DNA of 64,000 nucleotides, taken from positions 13,078 to 77,077 of the forward strand of contig JBKPBY010000053.1 of assembly GCA_046727075.1 (NCBI GenBank), given 5' to 3'. A program made the position numbers and the translations under genes. The notes beneath the pieces were generated by a model that saw only the letters and a list, made by a program, of their open reading frames with translations, was not told where the DNA came from and made no database searches. This stretch comes from a bacterium. GTDB taxonomy: Bacteria > Verrucomicrobiota > Verrucomicrobiia > Chthoniobacterales > JAFAMB01. Each line of letters opens with the position of its first letter. Positions within the stretch are counted from its first letter, which is position 1. Of this stretch, positions 5,372-54,796 are shown piece after piece.

Positions 5372-5521
5372 TTTTTGGAGAGGAATCGTTCTGTCGCCAT
5401 TTGGAAAATTTCAAAAGCGGACGACACAATCATTTGAAACCGCCCGGACTTATCATATATCATATATCGTCCCGCGCCAGCTATGACTTTGGTCGCCGGC
5501 AGCACTAGTTTCATCAGAAAG

Positions 5522-6580
5522 ATGACTGCTCCCCTCCGCATCGCCGTGGTCGGTTCCGGTATTGGCGCTCAACATGTCCAAGGCTATCAAGCCGCTCCAG
5601 ATCTTTTCGAGGTCGTCGCCGTTTGCGATATTGACGCTGAGCGCGGATCAGCGTTGGCCCAACAGTATGGTATCCGGGAATCGCTGACCGATTTCTCCGC
5701 GGTGATCTGTCGCGCCGATGTGGATGTCGTTGATCTTTGCACTCCGCCTCATCTTCATTTCCAACAGATCTTCGCTGCTCTTGAGTCTGGAAAACATGTG
5801 ATATGCGAAAAGCCGATCACCGGCAGCCTGGCCGAGCTGGATCGTTTAGAAGAGCTTGCTGCCAGGACCGGGAACCAGATCATGCCGATTTTCCAGTACC
5901 GCTTCGGTCATGGCCTGCAAAAGCTGAAATCCTTAGTTGATCGCCGGCTGACAGGTGACGCCTTTGTTTTTAACGTCGATATCGCCTGGTGGCGATCCTC
6001 TGACTACTACGCGGTGCCATGGCGCGGTAAACGTGCCACAGAATTAGGCGGAGCGCTTCTCAGCCAGGCGAGCCATGCATTAGATATGGTTTTCTATATT
6101 CTCGGCCCGGCCCAAACACTCTTTGCCCGAGCCGCGACACGTGTGAATCCGATAGAGGTTGAAGATTGCGTGGCGATTTCAACGGAGATGAAGGATGGCT
6201 CGCTTGGCACGATCTCGGTCACACTCGGTTCGGCAGAAGAAATTTCGCGTCACCGCTTCACCTTTCGCAATTTGAGTGCGGAGAGTAATACGAAACCGTA
6301 CGCGAACTCGACCGAACCCTGGCTGTTCTCGTTTCCGGAAGAAAAGCCAAATGAACAGATCCTGAATGTCCTGCAGAAGTTCACTCCCCTGGCGGAAGGA
6401 TATGAAGAGCAATTCCGGCGTTTCCATAAAGCATTGAGTCGCGGTGAACCGCTGCCGGTCACATTGGAAGACGCGCGCCGAGTTCTGGAGTTTGTTGCCG
6501 CCGTTTATTGGTCAGCCGAGAGTGGAGAACATGTTTCCCTGCCGTTAGCCAAAAGCAATCCGAAATACGTGCATCTCTAA
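5522..6580 (+). CDS. Gfo/Idh/MocA-family oxidoreductase
   Basis: LRIAVVGSGIGAQH Rossmann motif sits directly after ATG 5522; the ORF is open from 5483. HVICEKPITGSL motif present. Confidence 0.85.
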   Translation: MTAPLRIAVVGSGIGAQHVQGYQAAPDLFEVVAVCDIDAERGSALAQQYGIRESLTDFSAVICRADVDVVDLCTPPHLHFQQIFAALESGKHVICEKPITGSLAELDRLEELAARTGNQIMPIFQYRFGHGLQKLKSLVDRRLTGDAFVFNVDIAWWRSSDYYAVPWRGKRATELGGALLSQASHALDMVFYILGPAQTLFARAATRVNPIEVEDCVAISTEMKDGSLGTISVTLGSAEEISRHRFTFRNLSAESNTKPYANSTEPWLFSFPEEKPNEQILNVLQKFTPLAEGYEEQFRRFHKALSRGEPLPVTLEDARRVLEFVAAVYWSAESGEHVSLPLAKSNPKYVHL

Positions 6581-6604
6581 CATCTGCAGAAGGAGAACAG
6601 AACT

Positions 6605-7372
6605 ATGGATCAGTCTACGATCGACGCCCCAGCACTGCCCGGCGGCATAAGTGTCACACATCTTCGCGTCTATGACTCTGCCGGTCCGGACGGACTCTGC
6701 GGAGGCAGCGCCCACATGCATTTCGCCTGTACCGAGGCTTATCTGGTCCTTTCCGGCGAAGGCGCAGTGCAGACCTTGAGCGGGCAGGGTTACCGTGAGA
6801 CACCTCTGCAAAAGGGTTCGGTAGTCTGGTTTACTCCCGGAGTCATTCATCGGTTGATCAACCGTGACAAGCACCTGGAGATTTATGTCGTCATGGAAAA
6901 CCAAGGACTGCCGGAACACGGCGATTCCGTGCTCGCGTTTCCGGATGAGTACCTGGAGAACAAAGAAAAATATTTCGAGTATGCTTCGCTGAGTTCCAAG
7001 GGCGCTGTCTATGCCAACGATCTCGACGCGGCCACTCGCAGACGAAATTTGGCAGTAGAAGGCTTTATGGCGCTAGGCAAAAGAGTGGAGTCCGAGGGTC
7101 CTCGAGCGCTTCATGCTTTCTATGAGAGAGCTGTAAGTCTCATGCGCGCCAAAGAACCGCAGTTGCGAAATATTTGGGAATCCGGACCCGCAGCTACACT
7201 TAAGCGGACCGAAAAATATCTGAACTCGCTACGCGCTGCGTCGAGTGACTATCTTTCGACATCGGCAATCTTCGCGTTCCCACCCGAAACCCAAGCGCGC
7301 AAACTCGGATTCTGCGGAACGCTTCGGCCCTATCTACCCGAAGGAATCATCGTCGACGCCCAGGACAAATGA
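6605..7372 (+). CDS. cupin-domain protein
   Basis: 255 aa. Cupin-like core HMHFACTEAYLVLSGEGAV ... VVWFTPGVIHRLIN. AGGAG lies 9 nt upstream of the ATG. Confidence 0.6.
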   Translation: MDQSTIDAPALPGGISVTHLRVYDSAGPDGLCGGSAHMHFACTEAYLVLSGEGAVQTLSGQGYRETPLQKGSVVWFTPGVIHRLINRDKHLEIYVVMENQGLPEHGDSVLAFPDEYLENKEKYFEYASLSSKGAVYANDLDAATRRRNLAVEGFMALGKRVESEGPRALHAFYERAVSLMRAKEPQLRNIWESGPAATLKRTEKYLNSLRAASSDYLSTSAIFAFPPETQARKLGFCGTLRPYLPEGIIVDAQDK

Positions 7373-7400
7373 AGTCCATGTCCTGAAACAAACAAAACTC

Positions 7401-8650: not shown

Positions 8651-8662
8651 AAGGGCAATTCA

Positions 8663-9757: not shown

Positions 9758-9781
9758 GCGCGCCCTGCGCGCGCAGGTTTT
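9754..9781 (+). terminator. intrinsic-terminator-like hairpin
   Basis: CTGAGCGCGC-CCT-GCGCGCGCAG followed by GTTTT. The stem includes the TGA stop of the upstream gene. Confidence 0.6.
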
Positions 9782-9812
9782 CCGTCTTCCGTCAACCGTC
9801 TTCCGTCAACCG
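9782..9812. repeat. tandem 14-mer CCGTCTTCCGTCAA, 2.2 copies
   Basis: Perfect copies at 9782-9795 and 9796-9809. Complementary words CGGAAGACGG (9967-9976) and GGTTGACGG (9989-9997) lie about 160 nt downstream. Confidence 0.85.
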
Positions 9813-10060
9813 TTGGAATGCACTTCGGTCATGGCGCGTGCTGTGATCTGGATGGCGGCGTTACGTCGTGGAGCCATCGAGCGCCAGCTATTTCCACGAC
9901 AGCGATCCACAGAGCACCGCCCTCCAGAGCCAGGGGTGCAAGTCGTGCCACAAAGAACGGAAACCACGGAAGACGGAAAACGGAAGATGGTTGACGGTCG
10001 ACCGCCGACCGCGGGCCGCCGCCCGTTGGACGGAAACAGGAACACGAGCTATGATCCCGC

Positions 10061-15101: not shown

Positions 15102-16791
15102 CTATTTTGAGCACGCAGCTTCGCCGCTCTCTACGTACTCATACGGTTCGTAGACCGGTTCCCAGAAATTCGCTTTGAGCTCTTGTTCCAGCCCTGCTTC
15201 ATCCACTTCCGCGAGCCCGTCCTTGATTGACTGCAGGCCGACGGCTCTGGCTACTGACTTACTCACCGAGCGGATTGTCTCCAATGCTGGAAGCAAACTG
15301 GCATTCTTGTCCTGACGAGTGGGCGAAAGCTCTGCTAGTGCCAGTGCTGCCGCCTTGATCATTCCGTCGGATACATGCCGGGCGCGCGAAGAGAGTATGC
15401 CAAGTGCAAGCCCCGGGAAGACGTACGAGTTGTTTGTCTGAACAAATGGCACAGGCCGGCCGTTATAGCTAGCCGGAGGAAATGGACTTCCGGTCCCGAT
15501 CAACGCCCGCCCCTCCGTCGCGTCTGCGACCCTCCTGCGGCGTCGCTTCGCAGCGCGAGTTTGGATTGGACAACGGGAAGATTATCGGTCGGGCGACGTC
15601 TTGTGCCATCGTCCTCATTGCTTCTTTGGTGAATGCGCCCTGCTGACCTGAAACACCGATGAGAACGGTGGGACGCACATTCTTGATCACATCGAGTAGC
15701 CCGATGTTCTGCGGATCCGTAACCTTCCATTCCGCCACCTCAGCGCGCTGGCGGGCGAAAGCCTGCTGCTCAGGACGCACGCCTTCGCCACCTTCCACAA
15801 TTAGCCCGTAGCGATCGATTGCGTAGAAGCGGGAATAAGCGTCTCGTTCGCTCAGACCGGCGTCCCGCATCGTCGACAAAATGAGACGAGAGATTCCGAT
15901 GCCTGCACCGCCGAAACCTAAAACGACGATACGTTGATCTTCCAAAGGGACGCCTGTGACATTTATTGCCGACAGCAGTGTGCCAGTGGCGATGGCCGCA
16001 GTCCCCTGAATATCATCGTTAAAAGTGCACAGCTGGTTTCTGTACCGCTCAAGGAACTTTGCGCGTTACCTCCCGCAAAGTCCTCCCATTGCAGAAGAAC
16101 CTTCGGCCATCGACGCTTAACCGCCGAAACAAACGTATCGACCAACTCTTCGTACTTTGCGCCGCGTACCCGCTTGCTTTGCCAGCCGATATAAAGTGGA
16201 TCAGCCAACCGCTCCTCATTGTCGGTACCGACATCCAGCAAAATCGGCAGGCACCACTCTGGCCGGATACCTGCCAGAGCGGTGTACAGAGCCATCTTGC
16301 CAATCGGAATTCCCATCCCGCCGGCACCTTGGTCGCCTAACCCGAGAATGCGTTCTCCGTCGCTGACCACGATACAGCGAATGTCATCATAACGCCGATG
16401 CGAGAAGATCTGCTCGATGCGATTTCTATTCCGGATAGCTCAGGAAAAGGCCACGCGGTTTCCGCCAGATCTCGCTGAATTTCTGGCACGCTTCGCCTAC
16501 CGTCGGCGTATAAACGATCGGCAACGTGTCTTTGATGTGCTCGGCAATTAGCGAATAAAAGAGCGTTTCATTCGTGTCCTGAAGATCCCGCATGAATTCA
16601 TACTTCTCGAGCGGCGCCGTTAAGTTCGACAACCCTTTGCGTCGTCGCGTTCTCTGGTACTCCAACGTGCTGACATGGGTGGGCAAAAGACCGTGCAGCG
16701 CGAAGGTGTCGCGCTCGCTTTCGGAAAACGCCGTCCCTTTGTTAAGGCGCGAATTGTTCAGCAGATTCGGCCCTGTAAGGTTTGTCTTCAT
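15102..16791 (-). pseudogene. NAD-dependent malic enzyme gene broken by three frameshifts
   Basis: Four consecutive minus-strand ORFs (16791-16426, 16370-15963, 15945-15469, 15503-15102) together spell a ~563-aa malic enzyme: PIVYTPTVGEAC, VVSDGERILGLGDQG, GFGGAGIGIS, PIIFPLSNP, GTGSPF. FNDDIQGTA is readable only in a shifted frame. Frame changes occur near 16426-16432, 16058-16062 and 15530. Confidence 0.85.
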
Positions 16792-16820
16792 TATCCTGTC
16801 CTTTCTGCGCTAATCTAAAG

Positions 16821-16860
16821 CCGACACGCCGACACGCCGATACTCCGACACGCCGATACT
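16821..16860. repeat. 8-nt periodic array CCGACACG/CCGATACT, 5 units
   Basis: CCGACACG CCGACACG CCGATACT CCGACACG CCGATACT, lying between the malic-enzyme start and the dps stop. The same word family recurs at 39815-39900 and 49559-49620. Confidence 0.9.
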
Positions 16861-18361: not shown

Positions 18362-18945
18362 ATACTGTGTTTCTAAGTGCTATTGGTTTGTTCTCTGCCT
18401 TTCCAGGGATGAAGTTTGATACCGTTTTGCCGAAGGCTGCCGGGCAGGATACGAATGGTCAGGCAACCAACGTTCAAACAACCGCCGCATAATACGGGGA
18501 TATCCTCCTACTTGCCGATCTCGTCAAGTTTTTATCTTCTCATTCACCTACCCGCCTTGACCGGACCATCGAGCGGACTTCTCAGCGTCCGCTCAGGCAC
18601 GCGTTCGGCTTAGGTCGCGCAGGCTTGTCCGCCGAAGCCCTGGCGGAGGAGAGCGACCCTACCCGGCCTGACTTAGCGTAATGGCGGCCTTCTCTCCGGC
18701 CTTCAGCAGCTGATCGGACAATACCGACCAGCCGGTGGTCGTTACCTTGGTATTCAATCCAGCTCAAAAACGAGAGGGATTTGTTCGCGGATTGATTGGC
18801 ATTTTGGCAAAAGATCCGATCGACCCGGAAGATTATCTTACGCTGTACAACAAGTACGACAGCCATCCGATGGATCTCGGAAACTTTCTTCCTAGATAAA
18901 GATAGCGGGCGCGCTGCCGGTGAATCCGTGAGAGGATAAGTGCCC

Positions 18946-20503: not shown

Positions 20504-20530
20504 TAGTCCGGCCTTGGCCGGACGAAGGCG
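20504..20530. repeat. REP-like element, perfect 27-mer copy 1
   Basis: TAGTCCGGCCTTGGCCGGACGAAGGCG, identical to 33765-33791 and 44680-44706. Internal stem GTCCGGCC/GGCCGGAC. Confidence 0.95.
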
Positions 20531-23817: not shown

Positions 23818-23889
<72 letters not shown>

Positions 23890-25551: not shown

Positions 25552-25677
25552 ATCTGGCCGCGTACCCGCGTCAACGTTCTTTGCGGCAACGCCACTACTC
25601 GCCCTAGGCTTTAATTGAATACCGACTTCGCCGCTAACGCTGAAGGTTGCATTTCAAGCACCCAATCCCATAAACAT

Positions 25678-25713
25678 AAGTCCTATCCGTCCTCTAAGTC
25701 CCATTCGTCCTAT
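25678..25713. repeat. tandem 18-mer doublet
   Basis: AAGTCCTATCCGTCCTCT (25678-25695) is followed directly by AAGTCCCATTCGTCCTAT (25696-25713). Confidence 0.85.
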
Positions 25714-25780
25714 TCTGAGCGTGACCCTGTCCAGAACCAGGCCCATCGTTCGTCGAAGGAATGAACCAATCAATGCGACT

Positions 25781-27377: not shown

Positions 27378-27382
27378 ATTAT

Positions 27383-27489
27383 AACAACGCCGACAGTGCC
27401 AACAACGCCGACATCGCCGTCAACGGATTCGTCGGGTCGGTTCCGCTTCGGTTCTCGGCGCTGCCGGCGTTTCTATGCCGGCGTTTATA
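27383..27489. repeat. spacer made of two tandem doublets
   Basis: AACAACGCCGACAGTGCC / AACAACGCCGACATCGCC at 27383-27418, and TGCCGGCGTTTCTA / TGCCGGCGTTTATA at 27462-27489. Confidence 0.85.
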
Positions 27490-27492
27490 AAG

Positions 27493-33666: not shown

Positions 33667-33736
33667 GGATTCCCTGTAGGGCGGCAGGCACTGCCGCCGA
33701 CATCTATCCGGTACCACTCCCTTGCACGTGCCTACA

Positions 33737-33791
33737 GCGCCAAACGCCAAAACCTCTCGCGCAGTAGTCCGGCCTTGGCCGGACGAAGGCG
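33737..33791. repeat. REP-like element copy 2 (extended)
   Basis: GCGCCAAACGCCAAAACCTCTCGCGCAG followed by the perfect 27-mer at 33765-33791. Confidence 0.95.
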
Positions 33792-36850: not shown

Positions 36851-36974
36851 GAACCGCAGATTTCACAGATTACGCAGATTTTATTTTGGTGGTCGCCTCC
36901 AACGATGCGGGCAAGTCCACGCGATAGACCTGAATATCAATAAAAATCTGTGTAATCCGCGAAATCTGCGGTTC
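36851..36974. repeat. MITE-like element: ~35-bp terminal inverted repeats around a 53-bp core
   Basis: GAACCGCAGATTTCACAGATTACGCAGATTTTATT (36851-36885) versus AATAAAAATCTGTGTAATCCGCGAAATCTGCGGTTC (36939-36974). Confidence 0.75.
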
Positions 36975-37824: not shown

Positions 37825-38580
37825 ATGGTTCGTTCTATCGGTTTTGGGTTGTTGGCTTGCTTGCTTTGCGGTTGTGCCACGCGGGCGCTAACATCTGTCA
37901 AAGGAATACCCGGTCACTTCAGCACAGTAATTATCGATGCCGGTCACGGCGGCAAAGACAACGGAGGGCTCGGTGGACGACGCGGCATCGGCCTTGTTAG
38001 AGAAAAAGATGTAACGCTTAGCACGGCTAAGAGAGTTCGCGCGGAGCTGCAACACGCTGGCGTGCGCACGCTGATGATCCGCGACGATGACCGTTTTGTA
38101 GAGCTCGATGACCGGGTAGCTTTTGCGAATCGCCAAGGACCAAACGCGATTCTGGTCAGCATTCATTATGATGCCACCGGGGACCGCGGCGCGAACGGGG
38201 CAAAGACCTATTTCTGGAGAGCGGATAGCCACGGACTGGCAACGCGGATCCAGGAAAACCTGGTGGCCGAGACCGGCGAAACCAACCTCGGCGTTTTGCG
38301 CCGGCGCCTTCGACTGACTCGCAACCCGGAGATTCGATCGATCCTCTGTGAATGCGCGTATCTGACGAACCCCGGTGAGGCGCAGAAAGTGACGAACGAC
38401 GCCTACCAATCCAAAATTGCCACCGGTATCGCTAGGGGCATTCTCGAACAATATCGCCTGGGTGACGCAGGCATCGCCTCGGTCCCCGAACTCATTGCGC
38501 CCATGTCCAGAGCCTCCGACAAATACGTGAGCCGCCACACAACGCACCGCCGCAAGCACCACAAAAAAGTAAAAGCGTGA
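37825..38580 (+). CDS. N-acetylmuramoyl-L-alanine amidase (Amidase_3), lipoprotein
   Basis: Lipobox LLCGC. IIDAGHGGKDNGG, SIHYDA and ECAYLTNP motifs. Start taken at ATG 37825. Confidence 0.85.
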   Translation: MVRSIGFGLLACLLCGCATRALTSVKGIPGHFSTVIIDAGHGGKDNGGLGGRRGIGLVREKDVTLSTAKRVRAELQHAGVRTLMIRDDDRFVELDDRVAFANRQGPNAILVSIHYDATGDRGANGAKTYFWRADSHGLATRIQENLVAETGETNLGVLRRRLRLTRNPEIRSILCECAYLTNPGEAQKVTNDAYQSKIATGIARGILEQYRLGDAGIASVPELIAPMSRASDKYVSRHTTHRRKHHKKVKA

Positions 38581-38801
38581 GTGTTAGTGTGAGGTGAGAA
38601 CGAAGGGGGCGATCCGGCGACTGGTGAGACGGCAAAAAGAAATATGGAATCTAACAGAAAATCGCGAAGATTTTTTCTCGTCGGCAACCGAAAACTGAAA
38701 ACCGAAAACCGAAAACGGTGAACCGCGTGGCGAAGCCGCGCGCGCTTGACTCACACCCATACTCGCACTCGCACTGCGGGAGTGCTAGATTGGCCGCTTC
38801 A

Positions 38802-39833
38802 ATGCGAAAGAGAGACGTCACGATTCACGATGTCGCCGCTCAATCCGGAGTCTCCTACCAGACGGTCTCGCGTGTGATCAATGAGATGCCCGATGTGGCT
38901 GATGCAACGCGCCAGCGGGTGACCAAAGTTCTCGATCGACTCGGCTACCGTCCCAACCTGACCGCACGGCACCTGGTGAGCCGGCGTTCAACGGTGATCG
39001 GAGTGGTTACGTTTGCCACCGGTCTCTATGGCCCGTCCCAGATTGTGCTCAATGTCGAACGAGCGGCCAGAGCAAATGGCTACAACATCATGTTCGCTGG
39101 AATACCCGAGGAAAACGTCGAAGAAATTCACCGGGCGGTCGATACCCTTTGCGCCCATCGAGTCGCCGGAATATTGATGCATCTCCCCTTGGAAATTGAT
39201 CTGCGTCGTCTTCGCGACGTCTGTAAGAGTTTGCCTGTGGTGGCCATCGACTCCGATTTCGGTTTCGAAGCGCCTTCCGTTTTTGTTCAACAGGAAAAAG
39301 CTTCGCGGATGCTGACGAAGCACCTGATCGATCTCGGCCATAAACGGATTGCTTATCTCCGAGCGCCGGTTGTCTGGCGGGCATCCCGACTGCGATATCA
39401 GGGTTGGCTTAAAGCGCTGAAAGCCGCGCGCCTTAAACCGGGGCCTTGCGCCGAAGGTGACTGGTCTTCCAAGGGCGGATTCGAAGCAACGCTTGAGCTG
39501 ATCAGACACCACAAGAACCGATTCACTGCACTTATGGTCGCCAACGATCAAATGGCGCTCGGCGCGATCCGAGCTTTTGAGGAAAACGGTCTCCAGGTGC
39601 CGAGAGATGTGTCGATTGTCGGTTTCGATGATATTCCCGAGGCGGCGTTTTTCCGGCCCCCACTGACCACTGTCAAACAGGATTTCGACGCGGTCGGCAA
39701 ACTCGGCGTACGCTGCTTAATCGACCAATTTAAAAACGAAACGGCGCTCTCAACCCAGACACACACGGTGGAACCAATTTTTTTCGAACGCGCCAGCACC
39801 GCGAAGCCGCGGCGGAAGAACGTATCGGCGTGA
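38802..39833 (+). CDS. LacI-family transcriptional regulator
   Basis: VTIHDVAAQSGVSYQTVSRVIN HTH plus a periplasmic-binding-protein-like core. The last six codons lie inside the left arm of the 39815-39900 inverted repeat. Confidence 0.9.
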   Translation: MRKRDVTIHDVAAQSGVSYQTVSRVINEMPDVADATRQRVTKVLDRLGYRPNLTARHLVSRRSTVIGVVTFATGLYGPSQIVLNVERAARANGYNIMFAGIPEENVEEIHRAVDTLCAHRVAGILMHLPLEIDLRRLRDVCKSLPVVAIDSDFGFEAPSVFVQQEKASRMLTKHLIDLGHKRIAYLRAPVVWRASRLRYQGWLKALKAARLKPGPCAEGDWSSKGGFEATLELIRHHKNRFTALMVANDQMALGAIRAFEENGLQVPRDVSIVGFDDIPEAAFFRPPLTTVKQDFDAVGKLGVRCLIDQFKNETALSTQTHTVEPIFFERASTAKPRRKNVSA

Positions 39834-39900
39834 CGGCGTGTCGGCGTACCAGCGAATACGCCCCCAGAAGCCGACACGCCGTCGCGCCGATACGTTCTTC
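39815..39900. terminator. 31-bp-arm hairpin between convergent genes (bidirectional terminator candidate)
   Basis: GAAGAACGTATCGGCGTGACGGCGTGTCGGC (39815-39845) versus GCCGACACGCCGTCGCGCCGATACGTTCTTC (39870-39900): 30 of 31 complementary, with a 24-nt loop. Confidence 0.65.
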
Positions 39901-41329
39901 AACTTCTCCCGTTGGCCACTGCTACTGCGGCGGAAGCAACACGCTTTCGTCCGGCAAGTTCTTCTCCAGCGTTTGGTGGCAGGCTGGCGAATCCGAAATA
40001 TGACAGAAGCGAAATCACCCCAATTACGACGAAAGCGGGCAAGAAATCACCAGTTGCCAGCGTCTGGCTGCCTCGTAGCGCCATCGATGATTGAAGAATG
40101 AATGCGGCTATGGTTATACCGAGGCTTAGCGATAGTTGCTGGAAAACACTTGTCAGCGTTGTCGCCTGGCTCATCTCTGGTTGTTCGACCTCCGCAACGC
40201 TGATCGCATTAATACATGTGAACTGTAACGAACGAAAGAAACCACCGATAAAAAACACGGTGAGAATCCATAGATGAGGAGTTGTGATTGTGAAGCTCGC
40301 CGGCGCAACAGCCAAAATCGCTGTGACGATCGCGTTTATCGCTAACACCCGTCCGAATCCGAGTTGTCGTAGAATCGGGCTGGCAGTGAATTTCATTAAC
40401 ATCGCGCCGACCGCGCCAACAAAGGTCATCAAGCCGGATTGTAAAGGACTCAGTCCAAATCCAAGCTGCAACAAGAGAGGCCAGAGCAGCGGTGTTGCGC
40501 CAACGCCGATTCGAAAAAAGCTGCCGCCGATCACGCCGGCCTTGAAGGTAGGAAGCCGGAATAGCCGGAGATCCAGGATAGGATTCGGGGTTCGTGCCGC
40601 GTGCATCGCGTAGAGCGCGACACCTACAAAGCCGATGGCAAACAACGCGCAGACCGCCCAGACCGGAAGCGCGTTCCCTTCCATTGTTGCAGACGCCCAT
40701 ACAAGTGCGGATAATCCAACACCCGACAAAATAAACCCGATCAAATCGAACGGCGGCGGATCTTCCTCAACGATCTCCGGAATCAAAAGCGTTGCCAGCA
40801 CAAGACCAAGCACCGCGACGGGAATGTTAATCCAGAATATCCAACGCCACGAAAAGTAGGTTGTAATAAAGCCGCCCACTGGCGGACCGACCATCGGACC
40901 AATTAGTGCTGGTATTGTCAGCCACGCGAGAGCGTCAACAAATTCCGATCGCGGTACGCTGCGCAGAATGACGAGGCGTCCGACCGGCATCATCATTGCG
41001 CCACCGATTCCTTGGAGAGCTCTGGCCGCGACTAGCATATGCAACGACGTGGCGAACCCGCAGAAAATTGATCCTAGCGCAAATATAAGGATCGCGAGCC
41101 TGAAAATAATTCGCGCGCCGAACCGGTCCGCGAACCATCCAGAGGCCGGGATGAAGACCGCCAAAGCTAACAAATATGAAGCGAGCGCGAGCTTGAGTTG
41201 GATTGGGCTCTCGTGCAGTTCATGTCCGATCGCCGGTAACGCCGTAGAGAGGACCGTGGCGTCCAGATTCTCCATAAACAATGCGCATGCGACGATCAGC
41301 GGTAAGAGAATCCGAAGAGGGAGAGCCAT
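39899..41329 (-). CDS. MFS transporter, DHA2 (EmrB/QacA-like, 14-TMS) type
   Basis: 476 aa. LDATVLSTALPAIGHEL and FADRFGAR motifs. Confidence 0.85.
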   Translation of the reverse strand: MALPLRILLPLIVACALFMENLDATVLSTALPAIGHELHESPIQLKLALASYLLALAVFIPASGWFADRFGARIIFRLAILIFALGSIFCGFATSLHMLVAARALQGIGGAMMMPVGRLVILRSVPRSEFVDALAWLTIPALIGPMVGPPVGGFITTYFSWRWIFWINIPVAVLGLVLATLLIPEIVEEDPPPFDLIGFILSGVGLSALVWASATMEGNALPVWAVCALFAIGFVGVALYAMHAARTPNPILDLRLFRLPTFKAGVIGGSFFRIGVGATPLLWPLLLQLGFGLSPLQSGLMTFVGAVGAMLMKFTASPILRQLGFGRVLAINAIVTAILAVAPASFTITTPHLWILTVFFIGGFFRSLQFTCINAISVAEVEQPEMSQATTLTSVFQQLSLSLGITIAAFILQSSMALRGSQTLATGDFLPAFVVIGVISLLSYFGFASLPPNAGEELAGRKRVASAAVAVANGRS

Positions 41330-41330: not shown

Positions 41331-41458
41331 AGTGAGTGTGAGTGCGAGTGTGAGTCTTAGTTTTAGTGGTGGAATTAGATTTAGAGTTAGAGGGCACCAT
41401 TTCATAACCAGCACTAGCACTATCATTAGCACGAATACTCCCACTCACACCCGCACTC
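41331..41458. repeat. structured spacer between the two MFS genes (GAGTG-word inverted repeat)
   Basis: AGTGAGTGTGAGTGCGAGTGTGAGT (41331-41355) versus ACTCCCACTCACACCCGCACTC (41437-41458). The right arm covers the stop and last codons (RVRV) of the upstream MFS gene. Confidence 0.7.
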
Positions 41459-42668
41459 TTTTGTCCAGGTTCGGCAGGAAGGCGGTGAGCAATCCGATTA
41501 ACGGCAAGAACGAGCAGACTGAGTAAACGAAATCGATACTTGTCCAATCCGCAAGCCTGCCCAGCGCGGCCGATCCAATTCCGGCCATGCCGAATGCGGT
41601 TCCGAAAAAGATACCGGCGATCAATCCAGTTTTGCCCGGCACAAGCTCCTGCGCGTAAACGATGATGGCCGAAAAAGCGGACGCGAGGATCACTCCAATT
41701 ATCACCACAAGAACTCCAGTCCAGAAAAGGTCTGCGTACGGCAACGCTAGAGTAAACGGCGCTACGCCCAGGATCGATGCCCAGATCACATATTTACGCC
41801 CAATCCTGTCTCCAATCGGTCCTCCAATAATTGTACCGGCAGCGACAGCGAACAAAAACAGGAACAGATAAATCTGCGCTGTCTGGATGCCGAGATGAAA
41901 TTTGTTAATCAGGTAGAAAGTGAAGTAGTTGGAGAGGCTGACCAGGTAAAAAAATTTGGAGAAGATAAGCGCGATCAAAATCGCCAGCGAAAAGACGATC
42001 CTCTGCTTCGATAACAGCGCCTGGCCGGACTTACGTTTTGCGCTCGATTTGGTCGGGATTCTATGAAGGTTTTCGCCGTACCACTTTCCGACGATCGAAA
42101 GGATGATAATTGCGACCAGGGCAACCACGGAAAACCAGGCGATACTTGGTTGTCCTCTGGGCACGATGATAAGCGCAGCCAATAATGGCCCGGCCGAAGA
42201 GCCGGCGTTCCCACCGACCTGAAAAATCGACTGGGCGAGTCCGTGCTTACCTCCTGAGGCCATGCGAGCCAGACGCGATGCTTCGGGATGAAAGATTGAC
42301 GAGCCCAGGCCCACCAATGCGGCAGAAACAAGAATGGTTGGGAAACTGCCTGCCACCGAAAGTAGAACCAGGCCGATCAGCGTGAATCCCATCCCGATTG
42401 CCAAAGAATAAGGTTTAGGTCGGTGATCGGTGTAGAGCCCGACAAATGGCTGAAAAAGCGAAGCGGTGCACTGAAACGTCAGAGTGATCAGGCCGATCTG
42501 TGTAAAGTTCAGATGAAACGAGTTCTTCAGGACTGGATATATCGCCGGAATCAACGACTGAATCGTGTCGTTAAGCAGGTGCGAAAAACTGATTGCCAAG
42601 AGAATAGCGAATACGGTGTTCTCGGCTCTATTTTGATGTTCGACTGTGTCCTGAAATTCCGTCTGCAT
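41445..42668 (-). CDS. MFS transporter, Fsr (fosmidomycin-resistance)-like
   Basis: 407 aa. SFSHLLNDTIQSLIPAIYPVLK and GLYTDHRPKPYSL are typical of the Fsr subfamily. Confidence 0.8.
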   Translation of the reverse strand: MQTEFQDTVEHQNRAENTVFAILLAISFSHLLNDTIQSLIPAIYPVLKNSFHLNFTQIGLITLTFQCTASLFQPFVGLYTDHRPKPYSLAIGMGFTLIGLVLLSVAGSFPTILVSAALVGLGSSIFHPEASRLARMASGGKHGLAQSIFQVGGNAGSSAGPLLAALIIVPRGQPSIAWFSVVALVAIIILSIVGKWYGENLHRIPTKSSAKRKSGQALLSKQRIVFSLAILIALIFSKFFYLVSLSNYFTFYLINKFHLGIQTAQIYLFLFLFAVAAGTIIGGPIGDRIGRKYVIWASILGVAPFTLALPYADLFWTGVLVVIIGVILASAFSAIIVYAQELVPGKTGLIAGIFFGTAFGMAGIGSAALGRLADWTSIDFVYSVCSFLPLIGLLTAFLPNLDKRVRV

Positions 42669-43009
42669 GGATCTGGCCGCTGTACATCGGCGGCCTTCCG
42701 CGCCATCAGTACAGGCCCCTCTCCCGGGGAATCCCGTTTTCTAAAATACCCGGGCCGATCTCCTCCACAAGAGCCCCATACCAGGACAAAACGTAGTTGT
42801 TCTATCAGAATTCGTTTGGCTTTGGACGTTCCCGCCGTCACAGAATGGCCGGGAGTTTTTAGCCCAGAACTTCGGCCTTGTGTTCGGTTTGTGTCGAAGA
42901 GCGCCGCCGAGCGCTTCACGAACCGACGTGTCCGCCATAGCTGTGGCGAAGGCGGAAAACCGATAACGGAAGACCGATAACCGTTAACCGCGGCGCTGAA
43001 AGCGCCGCG

Positions 43010-44398: not shown

Positions 44399-44520
44399 GG
44401 CTGAAGAATACAGGAACCAGGAGTCAGGAGCCAGGGGCAAACGCAGAGTACGCCGAGGACGAGTGCGAGAGGTGAGAAGTGAGAGGTGAGAGAGCGAGAC
44501 GGCGAAGGGGCTGGGACCAG

Positions 44521-44572
44521 CGCAAGCCGCGATTCAAAATAGCCTGGGGCGAAGCGACAGCGTAGCCCTAGG
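44521..44572. repeat. one-armed, reverse-oriented copy of the 51791-51867 element
   Basis: CGCAAGCCGCGATTCAAAATAGCC+TGGGGCGAAGCGACAGCGTAGCCCTAGG aligns with the reverse complement of 51815-51867, with a few mismatches. Confidence 0.8.
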
Positions 44573-44650: not shown

Positions 44651-44717
44651 CATTGGCGAACGCGGAACCTGTCGCGCCGTAGTCCGGCCTTGGCCGGACG
44701 AAGGCGGACGCCAAACG
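44651..44717. repeat. REP-like element copy 3 (full length)
   Basis: CATTGGCGAACGCGGAACCTGTCGCGCCG, then the perfect 27-mer (44680-44706), then GACGCCAAACG. Confidence 0.95.
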
Positions 44718-44785
44718 TCTTTACCATTGACAGCCGAGCCTTTAGGCTCCACCGAAGCGCAGGTATTCCCCGTCAGCATACATAT

Positions 44786-46840: not shown

Positions 46841-46867
46841 ATCGCTGGGACTGGCACCGCCCCCGGT

Positions 46868-47083
46868 TCACCTGCCCACAATCACCAGCGGTCCGCTCTT
46901 GTCCGAAGCCTTCACTTCCCGAGATCCGATCGAGGTTGCGCATCCTCTGCACAAATAGTCATAAATCTCTCTGTCAGGAAGGATCAGGAGCAGTTTTTCG
47001 TACACGGGTTGAGCTGTCTTGCACTTTGGACAGTACAAGGAAGACGCACGCAACGTTTCGAATTGGGTAGCCCGAGCAGCCAT
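46868..47083 (-). CDS. small zinc-ribbon protein (hypothetical)
   Basis: 71 aa from ATG 47083, preceded by AGGTG. CPKC and CRGC pairs are 24 aa apart. Divergent from mrdA. Confidence 0.4.
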   Translation of the reverse strand: MAARATQFETLRASSLYCPKCKTAQPVYEKLLLILPDREIYDYLCRGCATSIGSREVKASDKSGPLVIVGR

Positions 47084-47288
47084 CGCAGGCACCTACTCTC
47101 GATCCAACCCGCAAACTCGTCAAACCGAACGCCAAGGTCCCTCACCCCCCCGCCAAAAACGCTCTCGCCTCTCACCCAGCGCTGTTTGCACTGTTTGGCA
47201 TTGCCGGTGTTTGCTGCTGCGTTGGAATTTCCATCGGCCCATAGTACAATTCGGCTTGGACTCATTATAGTCCTCCGACGGCCTATAT

Positions 47289-49517: not shown

Positions 49518-49558
49518 CGCTGTAGGGCGGCGTTCGCCGCTTTCGTATCGGCGTGTGA

Positions 49559-49620
49559 GCGTGACGGCGTATCGGCGTTTTTGGAAATCGAGCGCTCGAT
49601 CACGCCGTTACGCCGACACG
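49559..49620. terminator. nested hairpin between convergent mrdA and the LysR gene
   Basis: GCGTGACGGCGTATCGGCG (49559-49577) pairs with CGCCGTTACGCCGACACG (49603-49620), 16 of 18. The perfect palindrome ATCGAGCGCTCGAT (49587-49600) sits in the loop. Confidence 0.55.
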
Positions 49621-50483
49621 TCTCTACCCATCTCGTCCATCAGCGCATTCAATGCCGCTGACCGCCACCCTCGGCGCCAGATCAACATCACTTTCGCTTT
49701 CGCAATTGCCGATGGCAGCCTGCAAACGCTCACATCGTTCAGTGCCCGCAACGCCTGAAGTACAGATCGCGGAACAAGGGCCACTCCGGTTCCGGCCGCG
49801 ACACAAGCAACAATCGCGTGATAGGACGCAAACTCCAGAACCCGCTCGGGTACGATCTTTCCCTGATAAAGCCAGTTCTCCAACACGCGCCGATAAGCGC
49901 AGCCAGACGAGAATGCGATGATGGTTCGTTGCCCGATCTCCTGAGCTTTCGCCGTTTTCGGCAAATTCTTCGGCCCGATTAGAACAAGCTCTTCATCAAA
50001 TGCCGGTCGCATCTCGAGTTGATCCGTGATGAACGGTTGGGCGACGAACGCGGCTTCAATTTCGAAATCAAGTACCTTCCCAATCAGCGCGTCGGTTGTG
50101 CCTGTCACAAGATCGACTTGTACCTCGGGATGATCCCGATGGAACCGTGACAGGACCGGCGGGAGACCTGTCGCCGCAACGCTTTCGATTGTGCCCATCC
50201 GAAAAACTCCATGCGGTCTCCCGTTTCGTAACGCCGCCTCGGCCTCGGTGGAAAGACGAAGCAAACGCTCGGCATAACCCAGAAGCAACTTGCCTTCGGG
50301 CGAGAGTGTCAGTTTGCGTTTCCGGCGATGGAACAGTTCGACGCCTAAACGCTCTTCCAGCTGTTTAACCCGGGTCGTTACACTCGATTGAACTCGGTTC
50401 AATCGCGCAGCGGCTTTTGTGATACCACCATGTTCGGCCACCGCTCGAAAGATCTGAAGCGCTTCCAAATCGAGCGTTCTCAT
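49608..50483 (-). CDS. LysR-family transcriptional regulator
   Basis: 291 aa. LEALQIFRAVAEHGGITKAAARLNRVQSSVTTRVKQLE HTH. Divergent from the MFS gene. Confidence 0.9.
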   Translation of the reverse strand: MRTLDLEALQIFRAVAEHGGITKAAARLNRVQSSVTTRVKQLEERLGVELFHRRKRKLTLSPEGKLLLGYAERLLRLSTEAEAALRNGRPHGVFRMGTIESVAATGLPPVLSRFHRDHPEVQVDLVTGTTDALIGKVLDFEIEAAFVAQPFITDQLEMRPAFDEELVLIGPKNLPKTAKAQEIGQRTIIAFSSGCAYRRVLENWLYQGKIVPERVLEFASYHAIVACVAAGTGVALVPRSVLQALRALNDVSVCRLPSAIAKAKVMLIWRRGWRSAALNALMDEMGRDVSA

Positions 50484-50520
50484 AACGAGAACTATTCATC
50501 TCAAATATTCATTTTTCAAG

Positions 50521-51819
50521 ATGTATGTGCGGGCTGAGTATTCGCGGGTGACTCAAACCTCAAAATGGGACACGCCACCGGGTGACACCGCAACCGCGCT
50601 AACAGCCCGTGTCGCGCCGGCATGCCCAACGAAGCCACGACGGAGTTGGAAACCTTGGCGAAGGCGGAATCCAGTTTTTGGCGCTATCGCTGGCCTGATC
50701 GCACTGGCTGCAGCGATGGGGATCGGCCGTTTCGCGTTTACACCGGTGCTGCCAATGATGCAGGCCGATGCCGGTGTCACCATCGCCGCCGGCGCTTGGT
50801 TGGCTTCGGCGAATTACATCGGTTATTTTATTGGCTCGCTTTCCGCACTGGTTCTGCGGGTCCAGCCCGCGACAGCAATCCGTACCGGTCTTGCAGTAAT
50901 CGGCATCAGCACGTTGGGGATGGGATTCCAGCATGATGTCGCGTTTTGGGCCCTGCTGCGTGCGCTAGCCGGAATTGGAAGCGCTCTGGTTTTGATCTTT
51001 GTTTTCGCGTGGAGCGCTGATCAGTTCGCTCATCACCGGCATCATTGGTTCAGTGGTATTGTTTTCGCAGGAACCGGAGTCGGAGTTGCCATTTCCGGTG
51101 GACTCTGCCTCTGGCTGGGGCGGGCGAATGCTAACTCCGATACCGCCTGGATTCTCCTCGGAATCCTCTCTAGTGCCTTCGCCATTATCGTCTGGTTCGC
51201 GTTCGGCACAGATGGCGCTTCGAAAACAGTCCCGGAATCTGGAGGAACACTGTGGAGCCTCGAATCGCTACGGCTCATCGGATGTTATGGAGTATTCGGC
51301 TACGGTTATATCATCCCGGCCACATTCCTGCCTGTTATGGCGCGTGCGATCATTCCTGATCCCGCACTTTTTGGTTGGGCATGGCCGATTTTTGGTTCCG
51401 CGGCTGTGATATCCACTTTCTTAACCGCACGGTTCGCCCGCCGGTTCACTCATCGCACTATTTGGATTGGCGCCCATTTTGTCATGGCTGTAGGAATCTT
51501 TCTCCCGGCGCTTTTGCCCACGCTTTCCGCTATCCTGATCGCGGCCATCCTGGTTGGAGGCACATTCATGGTCGTTCCAATGGCGGCGATGCAGGAAGCG
51601 CGCTCGATTGCCGGCGCAAAACATTCAGCAGTCCTAATTGCTGCGATGACTTCCGCATTCGCACTAGGCCAGATTATCGGCCCGATTACCGTCGGTTGGC
51701 TGGTCGGCCCCCAAGGCACCAACCTCTCGGCCTCTCTCTATATTGCCGGCGGACTCTTAGTTTTTTCGGCCCTCGTCCTGATCAAGGGGCGAAAGCCGCG
51801 AATCAAAATAGCCTCCTAG
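50521..51819 (+). CDS. MFS transporter, YbfB/YjiJ-like (start codon uncertain)
   Basis: GIGRFAFTPVLPMM motif and 12 TM helices. The first ~50 codons are Arg-rich and contain a REP half-site (CTTGGCGAAGGCGGA), so the true start may be downstream of ATG 50521. Confidence 0.8.
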   Translation: MYVRAEYSRVTQTSKWDTPPGDTATALTARVAPACPTKPRRSWKPWRRRNPVFGAIAGLIALAAAMGIGRFAFTPVLPMMQADAGVTIAAGAWLASANYIGYFIGSLSALVLRVQPATAIRTGLAVIGISTLGMGFQHDVAFWALLRALAGIGSALVLIFVFAWSADQFAHHRHHWFSGIVFAGTGVGVAISGGLCLWLGRANANSDTAWILLGILSSAFAIIVWFAFGTDGASKTVPESGGTLWSLESLRLIGCYGVFGYGYIIPATFLPVMARAIIPDPALFGWAWPIFGSAAVISTFLTARFARRFTHRTIWIGAHFVMAVGIFLPALLPTLSAILIAAILVGGTFMVVPMAAMQEARSIAGAKHSAVLIAAMTSAFALGQIIGPITVGWLVGPQGTNLSASLYIAGGLLVFSALVLIKGRKPRIKIAS

Positions 51820-51867
51820 GGCTACGCTTTCGCTTCGCCCTCTAGGCTATTTTGATTCGCGGCTTCC
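51791..51867. repeat. 23-bp-arm hairpin enclosing the MFS stop codon
   Basis: GAAAGCCGCGAATCAAAATAGCC (51791-51813) versus GGCTATTTTGATTCGCGGCTTCC (51845-51867), 22 of 23 complementary. The TAG stop at 51817-51819 lies in the loop. Confidence 0.85.
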
Positions 51868-51908
51868 GCCGCTTGCTGACCCCTGGCACCCACACTCATC
51901 GCTCCTCC

Positions 51909-51979
51909 GCGCCAAACGCGAAACGCCAGAACCTGTCGGGCCGTAGGCTTGGCGAAGGCGGACGCCGAACGCCAAACGC
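51909..51979. repeat. REP-like element, short variant, forward
   Basis: GCGCCAAACGCGAAACGCCAGAACCTGTCGGGCCGTAGGCTTGGCGAAGGCGGACGCCGAACGCCAAACGC. It lacks the inner TCCGGCC/CGGAC stem. Confidence 0.9.
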
Positions 51980-52099
51980 ACTTGTGACTTGCAATGATCT
52001 AGTGTACTACTGCCCCCAACCCGTAGAGAATAGGATGTAGGCTATTCCGCTCCCCCCCACGATTTTTCTTGAACAAACCGAGCTTGACCGAGCTTCATC

Positions 52100-53191: not shown

Positions 53192-53254
53192 CGCTTGGCG
53201 TTTCGTGTCCGCCTTCGCTAAGCCTACGGCGCGACAGGTTTTGGCGTTTCGCGC
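53186..53254. repeat. REP-like element, short variant, inverted
   Basis: A 47-nt core GTCCGCCTTCGCTAAGCCTACGGCGCGACAGGTTTTGGCGTTTCGCG matches the reverse complement of 51909-51979 with 3 mismatches. It overlaps the desaturase stop codon. Confidence 0.9.
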
Positions 53255-53441
53255 TCTTCCGTTCCCAGCATTCAGCCGCCTGCGGGAACGATTTTCGGTT
53301 ATCGGTTTTCCGTTTTCGGTTCTCGCGAATGCGAGTGTTGGTGTGTGTGCGAGTAAGAATCTCGCCGCCCTCGCCCCCCCGCTTTTCGTATTCAGTTCCC
53401 GCTCGATCCCGTTCGATCCCGCTCGTTCAGCCCTTTCATGG

Positions 53442-54299
53442 CTATCCGTCCCACGCTGCCAAAAAACCTTCTATCAATTGCGGTAATTCATCGCTGTAAC
53501 CGCCCTCCAGAATCGGCGCTACCGGAACGCCCGCTTCTTTCAGTCGCTGTCCAAATTCCGCGAAATGCTCCAGTTCCAAAGTCATTTCAGTGATAGGATC
53601 GCCGACGAACGCATCGAACCCTGCAGATACCAGGAGAATGTCTGGCGCAAACTCCAGTAAATGATCCAGTGCTTTGTGCACGGCCGCGGCATGCACCTTG
53701 GCCGCAGTTCCCGGCATAATCGGCCAATTCAAAACGTTTTCTCGCGAACTCAAGCCGGTGCCAGGATACCCAGGATATTGATGAATCGATGCGAACCGGA
53801 TTCGTTGGTTCCCGAAGACGATCTCCTCCGTTCCGTTCCCGTGATGCGCGTCGAAATCCCAGATCGCCACCCGTTCGCATCCCATCCAAAGCGCATAACG
53901 CGCCGCGATTGCAATCGAGTTCAGATAACAGAATCCCATCGCCGTATTTGGCGTAGCGTGATGCCCAGGCGGGCGCATCAAAGAAAAGGCTCGCTCCCCG
54001 CTGAGCGCGAGGTCGACACACCCGATTGCTGCACCTGCTGCCCGTCGCGCGTGCTGCTCAATATTCGGATAAAAAGGCGTATCGGCATCAAAATCGGTGG
54101 GGATTCGAAGCCGCTCTAAATGGACGTCGCTGTGAACCCGCAAAACGTCTTCGTCCTTGGCCGGCTCAGGTTTGAGCCATTTCCAGTCGGGATGCTCATC
54201 CATGAGATAAGCGCGCGTATTTGAGACCCTGGCGGGCCGTTCCGGATGGCCTTCTATCCCAAACTTGGTCGCCGCCTCATCAAAGAGGACCGTCAGCAT
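53442..54299 (-). CDS. histone-deacetylase-family (AcuC/acetylpolyamine amidohydrolase-like) enzyme
   Basis: RPPGHHA and WDFDAHHGNGT motifs. Start taken at ATG 54299 (MLTVLFDE). Confidence 0.85.
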   Translation of the reverse strand: MLTVLFDEAATKFGIEGHPERPARVSNTRAYLMDEHPDWKWLKPEPAKDEDVLRVHSDVHLERLRIPTDFDADTPFYPNIEQHARRAAGAAIGCVDLALSGERAFSLMRPPGHHATPNTAMGFCYLNSIAIAARYALWMGCERVAIWDFDAHHGNGTEEIVFGNQRIRFASIHQYPGYPGTGLSSRENVLNWPIMPGTAAKVHAAAVHKALDHLLEFAPDILLVSAGFDAFVGDPITEMTLELEHFAEFGQRLKEAGVPVAPILEGGYSDELPQLIEGFLAAWDG

Positions 54300-54796
54300 G
54301 CCCAAACGATAGCCTCTGGTCCATGAGACCGCAAAACAACGCCGCCATCGGGGATCCCGCCTAGGCGGGACCGTCATTGCCGGGAACTGAAGAACGAGAC
54401 GGGAGAGCTGATGAACCGGCACAATTCGCCAGAGAAAAGAACGCTAAAGCCGCTGAAGCACGGTCCGCGCCCCCTCAGCTTCGGCGCTTAGTTTGACGAG
54501 CCAGGAGTCAGAATTCAGAATCCCGGTGGCAACTCATTGGGAAAGTGACACGTTTCCCGACTGACACTGACACTCTCTCCCAACTGCCAACTCATCTCCA
54601 AAAAAAGGCCCAAATAATTGAGGACATAGTCCGGTACAGCCCCGAGCCCTTCCCAGCCTTCTTTCTTGCCTTTTCCCAACCTGCCTAATATCTTGCCCCC
54701 AGTTGTACTTGTTCTTTATCCGTTTCAGAAAATACTCCTATAGCGCAGGCCGGCTTTTCTAGAGCAGGCCTGTCTCTTTTTTGCGCCTGCCCATGA

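Follow-up and report, generated by a model that had tools for sequence, protein, structure and literature searches.

Heptamer simple sequence repeats are over-represented in bacteria, and a polymerase-related preference for 7-nt steps, or slippage, has been proposed (PMC4692102). Intergenic heptamer repeats include the short tandemly repeated repetitive (STRR) sequences of Calothrix and Nostoc, GGGGAYT in Nostoc PCC 7120 and GGGAATC in Xanthomonas, and the cyanobacterial and Xanthomonas heptamers lie between the same gene pairs in related species, with extensive length variation and occasional inverted pairs (PMC4692102). At recF/recO of Nostoc, deletion of the heptamers changed regulation modestly (bioRxiv 10.1101/2022.06.06.494920). 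Here we analyse the short tandem arrays that lie between the genes of a bacterial DNA stretch of about 64 kb (the window, by which we mean the whole stretch analysed), and we find that they are a lineage-specific version of the known intergenic heptamer arrays rather than a new kind of system.

Like STRR-type repeats, the arrays of the window consist of units of ~7 nt set head to tail, lie in non-coding DNA only and are built from a few units dispersed on both strands; they stand between the same genes in relatives with length variation, and occasional inverted pairs can form stem-loops. Every property by which STRR-like repeats are recognised was found in them, that is, abutting units, non-coding enrichment, dispersed recurrence, predominance of heptamers and copy-number variation, although some units, of 14-18 nt, lie beyond the range of 5-11 nt. 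Unlike STRR-type repeats, they occur in a Verrucomicrobiota-like phylum and are made of other words, in 2-6 copies as against up to 26 or more. The window also has more word families, with units of 6-18 nt and words that do not form G-quadruplexes, and it has recurrent, conserved complementary arrays at both ends of a spacer.

TAACTGA repeats of Beggiatoaceae, cyanobacteria and Bacteroidetes occur in two to six copies, often just 5' of start codons (PMC4679880). That system has essentially one heptamer, related heptamers being rarely repeated, whereas several families stand together in the window, where arrays follow stop codons as often as they precede start codons. A classical view connects repetitive extragenic palindromes (REPs) in intercistronic positions with the stabilisation of mRNA and with termination. 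GTAG REPs are on record for the PVC superphylum, Opitutus terrae of the Verrucomicrobiota being one example (PMC3733652). Like GTAG REPs and bacterial interspersed mosaic elements (BIMEs), the palindromes of the window are GTAG-tagged, imperfect, GC-rich, extragenic and multicopy, occurring as singletons, dimers and tandem clusters; unlike REPs, the short-word arrays themselves are non-palindromic, and the REPs of the window are flanked by and embedded in heptad arrays. The very small dispersed repeats (SDRs, 21-27 nt) that Elhai et al. described in 2008 in heterocyst-forming cyanobacteria are said to be inserted in tandem heptamer arrays and nested in one another. The likeness lies in this nesting, in arrays and in each other, whereas there is no sequence relationship and the elements of the window are palindromic, REP-like and ~30-55 nt long. 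A full-text literature search found nothing on such repeats in Chthoniobacterales. The window departs from the known cases in its phylum, in how many word families coexist, in its low copy numbers and in the recurrent, conserved complementary arrays that bracket whole spacers.

Tandem arrays of the intergenic spacers

Judged from its homologues, the host is probably a soil member of Chthoniobacterales. The closest named homologues of its alanyl-tRNA synthetase (AlaS), 70-72% identical, belong to metagenome-assembled genomes (MAGs) labelled 'Chthoniobacterales bacterium' or 'Verrucomicrobia bacterium', a homologue of its metallo-beta-lactamase (MBL)-rhodanese protein, with 65% identity, carries the label Verrucomicrobia, and one relative comes from a soil metagenome.

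In a gene map of codon-usage-scored open reading frames (ORFs), corrected by Pfam matches and by gene calls on related contigs, coding DNA makes up 57.5 kb of the 64-kb window and non-coding DNA 6.5 kb, and 31 spacers measure at least 50 nt. Tandem-repeat loci were those that Tandem Repeats Finder (TRF) reported with a score of at least 30 and a period of at least 5, and 100 dinucleotide-preserving shuffles served as the null. Non-coding DNA holds 22 such loci (3.36 per kb; 1.23 ± 1.14 in shuffles) and coding DNA 16 (0.28 per kb; 9.0 ± 3.0 in shuffles). Same-strand 7-mers recur within 30 nt at 137 non-coding positions, with 19.4 ± 6.5 expected, and at 184 coding positions, with 145 ± 14 expected; inverted 8-mers recur within 200 nt at 80 non-coding positions, with 23.6 ± 6.3 expected. 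Arrays are about 18-fold above chance and confined to non-coding DNA, coding DNA being near chance. A reading made earlier from the letters of the window (the sequence-only reading) had held that such repeats are not random low complexity, and on this count it was right. The ten doubled words that it had cited are all present where it had placed them (TRF, direct reads and exact doublets). Its claim that nearly every spacer is built in this way goes too far: the excess is real, but TRF-level arrays occur in only 15 of the 31 spacers of at least 50 nt and make up ~9% of non-coding bases. Two long spacers, 18362-18939 (578 nt) and 46841-47288 (448 nt), carry no tandem array at all, and array content therefore does not simply follow spacer length.

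Three of the 16 'coding' loci (32117, 38761 and 44411) really lie upstream of true start codons, as orthologue lengths and domain positions indicate. The array at 32117 is placed upstream of the methyltransferase start because orthologues are ~50 aa shorter, that at 38761 upstream of the lacI start because the LacI helix-turn-helix begins at residue 35, and that at 44411 upstream of the MBL start because every database copy of the MBL-rhodanese protein has 462 aa. The ORFs or automatic calls at 31996-32145, 38718-38807 and 44399-44440 run over these arrays 5' of the probable true starts. As gene callers stretched at least three ORFs in this manner, arrays can inflate ORF predictions in this lineage.

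The units, of 6-18 nt, abut head to tail without a spacer in 2-6 copies (TRF and exact-doublet scans), and heptamers dominate. A spacing of 7, 14 or 21 accounts for 52 of the 137 non-coding 7-mer recurrences, the main peaks being at 7 and 14 and smaller ones at 6/12/18 and 8/16; the best period is 7, 14 or 21 in 10 of the 22 merged non-coding TRF loci, and a row with a 7-nt unit exists for 10 of the 22 in the unmerged TRF table. In CRISPR arrays, repeats of 24-48 nt alternate with unique spacers of about their own length; this class was ruled out for the window, where the units abut directly.

Array richness is lineage-specific, though without a sharp boundary. Non-coding DNA holds 3.4 TRF loci per kb in the window and 3.8 in close relatives, and on other Chthoniobacterales contigs the figure is 0.29 (L010), 0.36 (L032), 1.3 (L009) and 3.3 (L031). 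An unrelated MAG has 0.7, and no TRF locus was found in the non-coding part of a 50-kb stretch of E. coli K-12 (0 per kb). The distant contig L031, whose AlaS is 71% identical, carries at 16261-16405 a long run of (AAGAAAT)n and after it an inverted array of the TACTTCT type, and the habit of pairing thus reaches past the immediate clade of the window, with different words.

Apart from a few singletons, the words belong to the following families.

W1: CGCCAAA / CGCGAAA
W2: GCCGAYAC
W3: CGGTTWW (TTCCGTC, TTTTCGG)
W4: GTGAGT / GTGAGAG and the complement ACTCAC
W5: TCCCGCTCGA
W6: CTCCTGR

W1 to W4 each occur in at least four spacers of the window, and the words recur on both strands, as the sequence-only reading had maintained. 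W5 is found at 53397 and at a non-orthologous site, position 10355 of L004. Overall sharing of 11-mers (11.1% of non-coding and 8.9% of coding DNA) has too high a chance component to inform, and only segments common to at least three contigs were counted. By that measure W1, W2, W5 and the 18-mer word of 27383 are each found again in 3-5 non-orthologous contigs that are otherwise dissimilar to the window, the 18-mer in 3. As far as the compared contigs go, they show a small vocabulary that is common to the clade and includes non-orthologous sites. Many arrays lie within 0-15 nt of a start or stop codon, 3' ends of genes being as frequent as 5' ends. The arrays and palindromes of the window are as follows (strand in brackets where assigned; MFS1 and MFS2 are two major facilitator superfamily transporter genes).

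5451-5468: TATCATA x2.6, 14 nt upstream of the ATG at 5483, overlapping a promoter-like TTGAAA-18-TATCAT
9758-9777 (+): GC hairpin directly after the stop at 9757
9780-9813 (+): T-rich TTCCGTC/AACCGTC array 3' of that hairpin, a 14-mer x2.3 (100% match at 9782-9813)
9957-10025 (+): ACGGAAR heptads, inverted partner of 9780-9813, then CGACCGC x3.9
16820-16860: GCCGAYAC octamer (W2) x4.6-5, 4 nt beyond the stop of a ferritin gene
20504-20527 (+): GTAG-type REP palindrome TAGTCCGGCCTTGGCCGGACGAAG
25676-25715: 18-mer TAAGTCCYATYCGTCCTM x2 (doubled word at 25677-25711) in a divergent spacer
27383-27418 (-): 18-mer AACAACGCCGACAKYGCC x2 (88%)
27462-27489 (-): 14-mer GCCGGCGTTTMTAW x2 (12/14 match), GCCGGCGTTT-type, partly complementary to AACAACGCCGACAKYGCC
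28213-28236: GAGGAA x4 in a divergent spacer
32117-32145 (+): CGCCAAA (W1) x4, including an exact AAACGCC x3 at 32121-32141, just 5' of the probable methyltransferase start
33676-33700 (+): REP type 2, GTAGGGCGGCAG..CTGCCGCC
33738-33752 (+): CGCCAAA x2, abutting the REP type 1 at 33765-33788; the whole block is 33676-33791
36857-36881: CAGATTTCA x2.8
38578-38602 (+): GTGAG array at the amidase stop
38686-38725 (+): AACCGAA heptad array inside the amidase-lacI spacer
38723-38745 (+): GC hairpin inside the amidase-lacI spacer
38755-38775 (+): ACTCGC array upstream of lacI, complementary to the GTGAG array of 38578
39826-39890: inverted pair of GTGWCGGC arrays between convergent genes
41332-41355 (-): GTGAGT x4, 2 nt from the MFS2 start
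41410-41432 (-): AGCACT x3.8 inside the MFS1-MFS2 spacer
41437-41460 (-): ACTCMC array complementary to GTGAGT, overlapping the MFS1 stop
43009-42989 (-): GC hairpin after the MBL stop
42990-42953 (-): CGGTTWW heptad array x5, 3' of the GC hairpin after the MBL stop
42956-42926 (-): palindromic insert of ~30 nt nested in the CGGTTWW array after MBL
44411-44435: CAGGAGC x3.6, 12 nt upstream of the true MBL start
44467-44494: GAGAGGT/GAGAAGT heptads
44662-44718 (+): REP type 1 unit GCGGAACCTGTCGCGCCGTAGTCCGGCCTTGGCCGGACGAAGGCGGAC with a CGCCAAA tail
49522-49585 (+): REP type 2 hairpin, then GTATCGGC/GTGACGGC octamers (W2), after the PBP2 stop
51910-51981 (+): CGCCAAA/CGCGAAA heptads flanking a degenerate REP core on both sides
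52077-52095 (+): ACCGAGCTTG x1.9, 4 nt upstream of the ATG at 52100
53193-53255: reverse-oriented REP core with GTTTSGC heptads on both sides, in the convergent spacer 53193-53425
53292-53325: TTTTCGG x4.9, an inverted heptad array in the same spacer
53361-53379: 9-mer x2.1 in the same spacer
53397-53425: TCCCGCTCGA (W5) x2.9 in the same spacer
54560-54593: ACTGAC x2.5 and CCAACTG/CCAACTC

Change between species and nested palindromes

The syntenic loci of five further lineages (L004, L027, L028-30, L006/7 and L008) were compared with the window, making six lineages in all; the identity of the MBL-rhodanese protein to that of the window is 93% in L004, at least 90% in L027, 93% in L028-30, 84% in L006/7 and 79% in L008. 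Indels were classified by global alignment, and as alignments of divergent spacers are unreliable only the cleanest events were scored.

Within species the arrays are stable. Contigs from three other samples of the Joint Genome Institute (JGI) metagenomes match the window with 99.9% identity and 0 gaps over 3.6-19 kb that include five arrays; between the window and L026 there are 56 substitutions over 12.8 kb and zero array length changes; and L028, L029 and L030 show no tandem array change, their sole indel being one shared 2-nt difference outside arrays. Strains that are 99.5-99.9% identical, the window and L001-L003 included, thus show no change in array length, which argues that the arrays are not hypermutable switches. 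Between species the picture is one of whole units. In the six lineages 3, 4, 5, 5, 5 and 6 heptads follow the MBL stop; upstream of MBL, the array of L004 is longer by five heptads (35 nt = 5 x 7, 80% tandem identity); and at 42959 a 14-mer is additional in the window (93% tandem identity). The alignments therefore show gain and loss of whole units between species and stability among near-identical strains, a pattern that fits slippage, one of the generating mechanisms that the sequence-only reading had put forward. The comparison of orthologous spacers that it had called for shows position kept as units come and go.

At some places one word family is kept in all lineages, for instance W3 after MBL, W2 where MFS2 and lacI converge, and W4 around the spacer between MFS1 and MFS2. 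The GC hairpin and heptad array after the MBL stop are kept in 5 of the 6 lineages, down to 79% protein identity; L008 retains the array without the hairpin. This conserved array and the MFS1-MFS2 bracket stand amid spacer sequence that has turned unalignable.

A second generating process, which the sequence-only reading did not foresee, involves REP-type mini-palindromes that insert into arrays and bring flanking arrays along. REP type 1, TAGTCCGGCCTTGGCCGGACGAAG, has three exact copies in 64 kb (20504-20527, 33765-33788 and 44680-44703) where 0 are expected, and its core is found on 14 soil metagenome contigs; the 42-nt unit is tandemly doubled or tripled in L013 and L023, and W1 heptads adjoin it on both sides. 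REP type 2, GTAGGGCGGCAG..CTGCCGCC, lies at 33676-33700 and 49522-49540. Both GTAGTCCGGCCTTGGCCGGAC and GTAGGGCGGCAG..CTGCCGCC have a GTAG tag beside an imperfect GC-rich palindrome, and in being multicopy and extragenic, from singletons to tandem clusters, they agree with the description of GTAG REPs. No Y1_Tnp domain was found among the proteins scanned, which are those of the 64-kb window, the related contigs being short.

Mobility of the mini-palindromes is suggested by just three comparisons of empty and filled sites. The window, L004 and L027 have a palindrome of ~30 nt within the W3 array that follows MBL, and L007 lacks it; 46 nt inside the W3 array upstream of lacI are found only in L028; and the loop of REP2, empty at 33676 of the window, contains a REP1 core in L015. 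The inserts, of ~30, 46 and ~55 nt, stand in CGGTTWW arrays or in the loop of another palindrome. Larger differences between species are blocks of 80-144 nt that hold a REP core and W1 heptads. As the aligned contigs show, REP-type mini-palindromes sit in heptad arrays and in each other, and from species to species blocks of REP and array are gained or lost.

Two copies of a two-hairpin element of ~55 nt, CCTAGGGCTACGC..GCCCYCTAGGCTATTTTGAWTCGCGGCTTSCGC, lie at 44519-44572 (-) and 51815-51873 (+), and the element is also found in L004 and L026. Over their full length the copies match Rfam Acido-Lenti-1 below threshold (25 bits; gathering score 37). This may be a third dispersed element or a small RNA.

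Complementary arrays, hairpins and rival explanations

The sequence-only reading had the words pairing into long hairpins, and this stands for a subset of arrays (z -3.8 to -7.9) and fails for others. Between MFS1 and MFS2 the GUGAG array over the upstream stop pairs with the ACUCAC array 2-3 nt before the downstream AUG, enclosing the whole spacer; this bracket is kept in 6 of 6 lineages with z = -4.1, -6.2, -3.8, -6.9, -5.3 and -6.9. The amidase-lacI bracket is part of the minimum-energy fold in four lineages (z -1.7 to -3.9), where it encloses ~200 nt of spacer; it is absent from the short spacer of L008. The two W2 arrays at 39826 and 39873 form a perfect stem of 21 bp (fold of 39825-39905, z -7.9), both arms having the same order of variant units over the 21 bp. 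At 27370-27500 two doubled words form nested stems in one hairpin that spans the spacer (z -4.6), and the arrays at 9780 and 9957 form a 16-bp helix enclosing ~145 nt (z -3.1). The arrays at 16820 and 25676, which have no pairing partner, give z of +0.6 and +0.4. A GC hairpin lies directly 5' of the W3 array, on the T-rich strand, in 4 of 5 cases. These modules resemble a terminator with an interrupted U-tract, the Us being interspersed with no run, and two of them are antisense to both neighbouring genes.

We propose a composite explanation, to which we give moderate confidence, in which the arrays are grown by slippage in association with palindromes and the hairpin-forming subset is functional. 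Arrays would be seeded at or beside hairpin-forming elements, lengthened and shortened by replication slippage, and dispersed partly by travelling with mini-palindromes; genes would be cleared of them, since a unit of 7, 8, 10 or 14 nt disrupts the reading frame. In a spacer with an array at one end and its complement at the other, the transcript would fold into a long hairpin, either bracketing an intercistronic spacer or lying between convergent genes; directly after some stop codons there is a GC hairpin followed by U-rich heptads. By analogy with REPs and BIMEs in enterobacteria, the most likely role of this subset of hairpins would be at the 3' end of the mRNA or in its processing or stability. 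As a stem of repeated words would still pair after a slip of one unit, such a hairpin would be tolerant of the slippage that builds it, and this would explain how the same bracket persists despite unequal and changing arm lengths; in L004 its arms are 27 and 43 nt, and yet the bracket is the same. Unpaired arrays would most likely be neutral or weakly regulatory by-products, and it is only for the hairpin-forming subset that we infer a function.

Several points weigh against the composite explanation. About half of the arrays have no pairing partner, and any role of the arrays at the RNA level is a putative one. The z values are inflated by construction where the arms are one word and its complement, and register shifts bar an assessment of covariation. 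A consensus scan gave no excess of terminators made of a hairpin and a T-run (26 against 21.8 ± 4.1; 33 against 22.1 ± 4.9), and so the terminator role that had been suggested earlier is plausible for a subset only. The composition of the array strand relative to the nearest gene, G-poor near starts and G-rich near stops, is a trend only (Mann-Whitney p = 0.078, n = 33), and this asymmetry was not used as evidence. Upstream of MBL three different word sets occupy one position in different species, which turnover fits better than a sequence-specific function would. The material, ~64 kb of window and roughly 200 kb of related contigs, is less than one whole genome, and orthologous spacers compared across lineages are non-independent samples.

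Some of these points favour the main rival, pure neutrality, which we judge possible but distinctly the less probable. Here a lineage bias to short tandem duplication and the proliferation of REPs would leave arrays and hairpins of which none is functional and which persist where they are harmless. This would suit the spacers without arrays, about half of the total, the many unpaired arrays, the lack of a significant strand bias relative to transcription and of terminator enrichment, the exchange of words at one position and an array density that is uneven even from one related contig to another. However, the hairpin and array after MBL persist to 79% protein identity, a divergence at which decay of arrays with 2-6 copies would be expected, the GUGAG/ACUCAC bracket survives in every lineage while nearby spacer sequence is unalignable, and the arms of the 39826/39873 stem share their order of variant units.

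It is also conceivable, though we think it decidedly unlikely, that the arrays are reiterated sites for one or more global-regulator proteins, either RNA-binding (S1, Csp, CsrA or a ring-shaped multimer) or a DNA-binding nucleoid protein. A small conserved vocabulary reused at many loci in both orientations, often within 0-15 nt of start or stop codons, would agree with such sites, and the same idea has been proposed for the TAACTGA repeats of Beggiatoaceae (PMC4679880) and for the Nostoc heptamers (bioRxiv 10.1101/2022.06.06.494920). Against it, the arrays draw on no fewer than seven word families, unrelated to one another and with periods of 6-18 nt, successive sites at a period of 7 bp do not fall on one face of duplex DNA, and the identity of the words is unconserved upstream of the MBL gene. 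Phase-variable contingency loci that switch neighbouring genes within a population were rejected as very improbable: tandem repeats do lie near start codons and promoters and differ in copy number between species, but contigs from different samples that are 99.5-99.9% identical show no length differences, the neighbours are housekeeping or transport genes rather than surface antigens, and arrays are equally common at the 3' ends of genes. An assembly or sequencing artefact, which the sequence-only reading had named as what could undo it and which the splitting of two window genes into several ORFs might suggest, is hardly credible, because independent assemblies of three other metagenomes yielded contigs with identical repeats and related species have the same arrays at the same positions.

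Narrower candidates were rejected as well. Canonical intrinsic terminators were discarded as a general explanation, given the scan without enrichment, in which only two matches coincide with arrays. With Rfam 15, only tRNA-Val reaches its gathering score in the window; a permissive threshold adds just the two Acido-Lenti-1-like copies and an implausible mir-4847 at 49551-49621 that overlaps W2 octamers, none of these matches coinciding with a word array as such, and known RNA families were set aside. A CsrA sponge, with GGA in every ACGGAAR heptad at 9966, suits one array only, the other families being without GGA. GAGGTGA in the GTGAGAGG arrays was considered as a reiterated Shine-Dalgarno or anti-Shine-Dalgarno mimic, but these arrays are ~200 nt from the nearest downstream start, or antisense. 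The GAG triplets of the GUGAGU arrays bear a possible resemblance to sites of TRAP-like binding.

A bolder form of the composite explanation is conceivable, to which we assign a low probability. Arrays and nested mini-palindromes would be one active, sequence-specific DNA system of soil Verrucomicrobiota, in which very small mobile palindromes target or generate heptad arrays, an idea already put forward for the cyanobacterial SDRs, and complementary arrays are recruited as indel-tolerant 'zipper' stems that make hairpins of whole intercistronic spacers and thereby control the processing, stability or coupling of neighbouring genes genome-wide.

Neighbouring features and meaning for the lineage

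Other features of the window were seen beside the arrays. The segment 9814-9956 is a unique sequence of ~145 nt enclosed by two facing modules of hairpin and heptads whose arrays pair with each other, and it could harbour a gene for a small RNA or for a peptide, or represent cargo that an insertion brought in. In the leader of MFS1, 42669-42830 (-), ~160 nt upstream of the first MFS transporter gene are ~90% conserved in L004, L007 and L027, and a core of ~45 nt (GCCAAACGAATTCTGATAGAACAAC.ACGTTTTGTCCTGG) is kept even in L008, in contrast with the fluid, array-bearing part of the spacer. The leader at 42669-42830 has no Rfam match and is likely to be an operator or a structured leader.

The malic enzyme gene, 15102-16791 (-), is broken into four consecutive ORFs, with the malic N-terminal domain at 16426-16791, Malic_M fragments at 15469-15945 and 15102-15503, and 15963-16370 in between. 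Another metagenome contig has the same first fragment of 121 aa, and the gene is probably a pseudogene rather than the product of a sequencing error. A PBP1C-type penicillin-binding protein, 61794-63988 (+), also appears split, its transglycosylase and transpeptidase domains lying at 61794-63542 and BiPBP_C in a separate ORF at 63575-63988. A tRNA-Val (GAC) lies at 23818-23889 (-).

Verrucomicrobiota of the Chthoniobacterales type belong to the most abundant bacteria of soil, hardly any of them have been cultured, and to our knowledge little is known of their non-coding DNA. If our reading is true, 10-20% of the spacer DNA of this clade would consist of short tandem arrays with nested REP-type palindromes, which would extend intergenic heptamer arrays to a new phylum. 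The arrays would then be ready-made markers for the typing of strains and species in metagenomes, and the lineages that carry the same arrays in different copy numbers, at least six of them, would form a natural test set for telling selected RNA elements from the debris of slippage.

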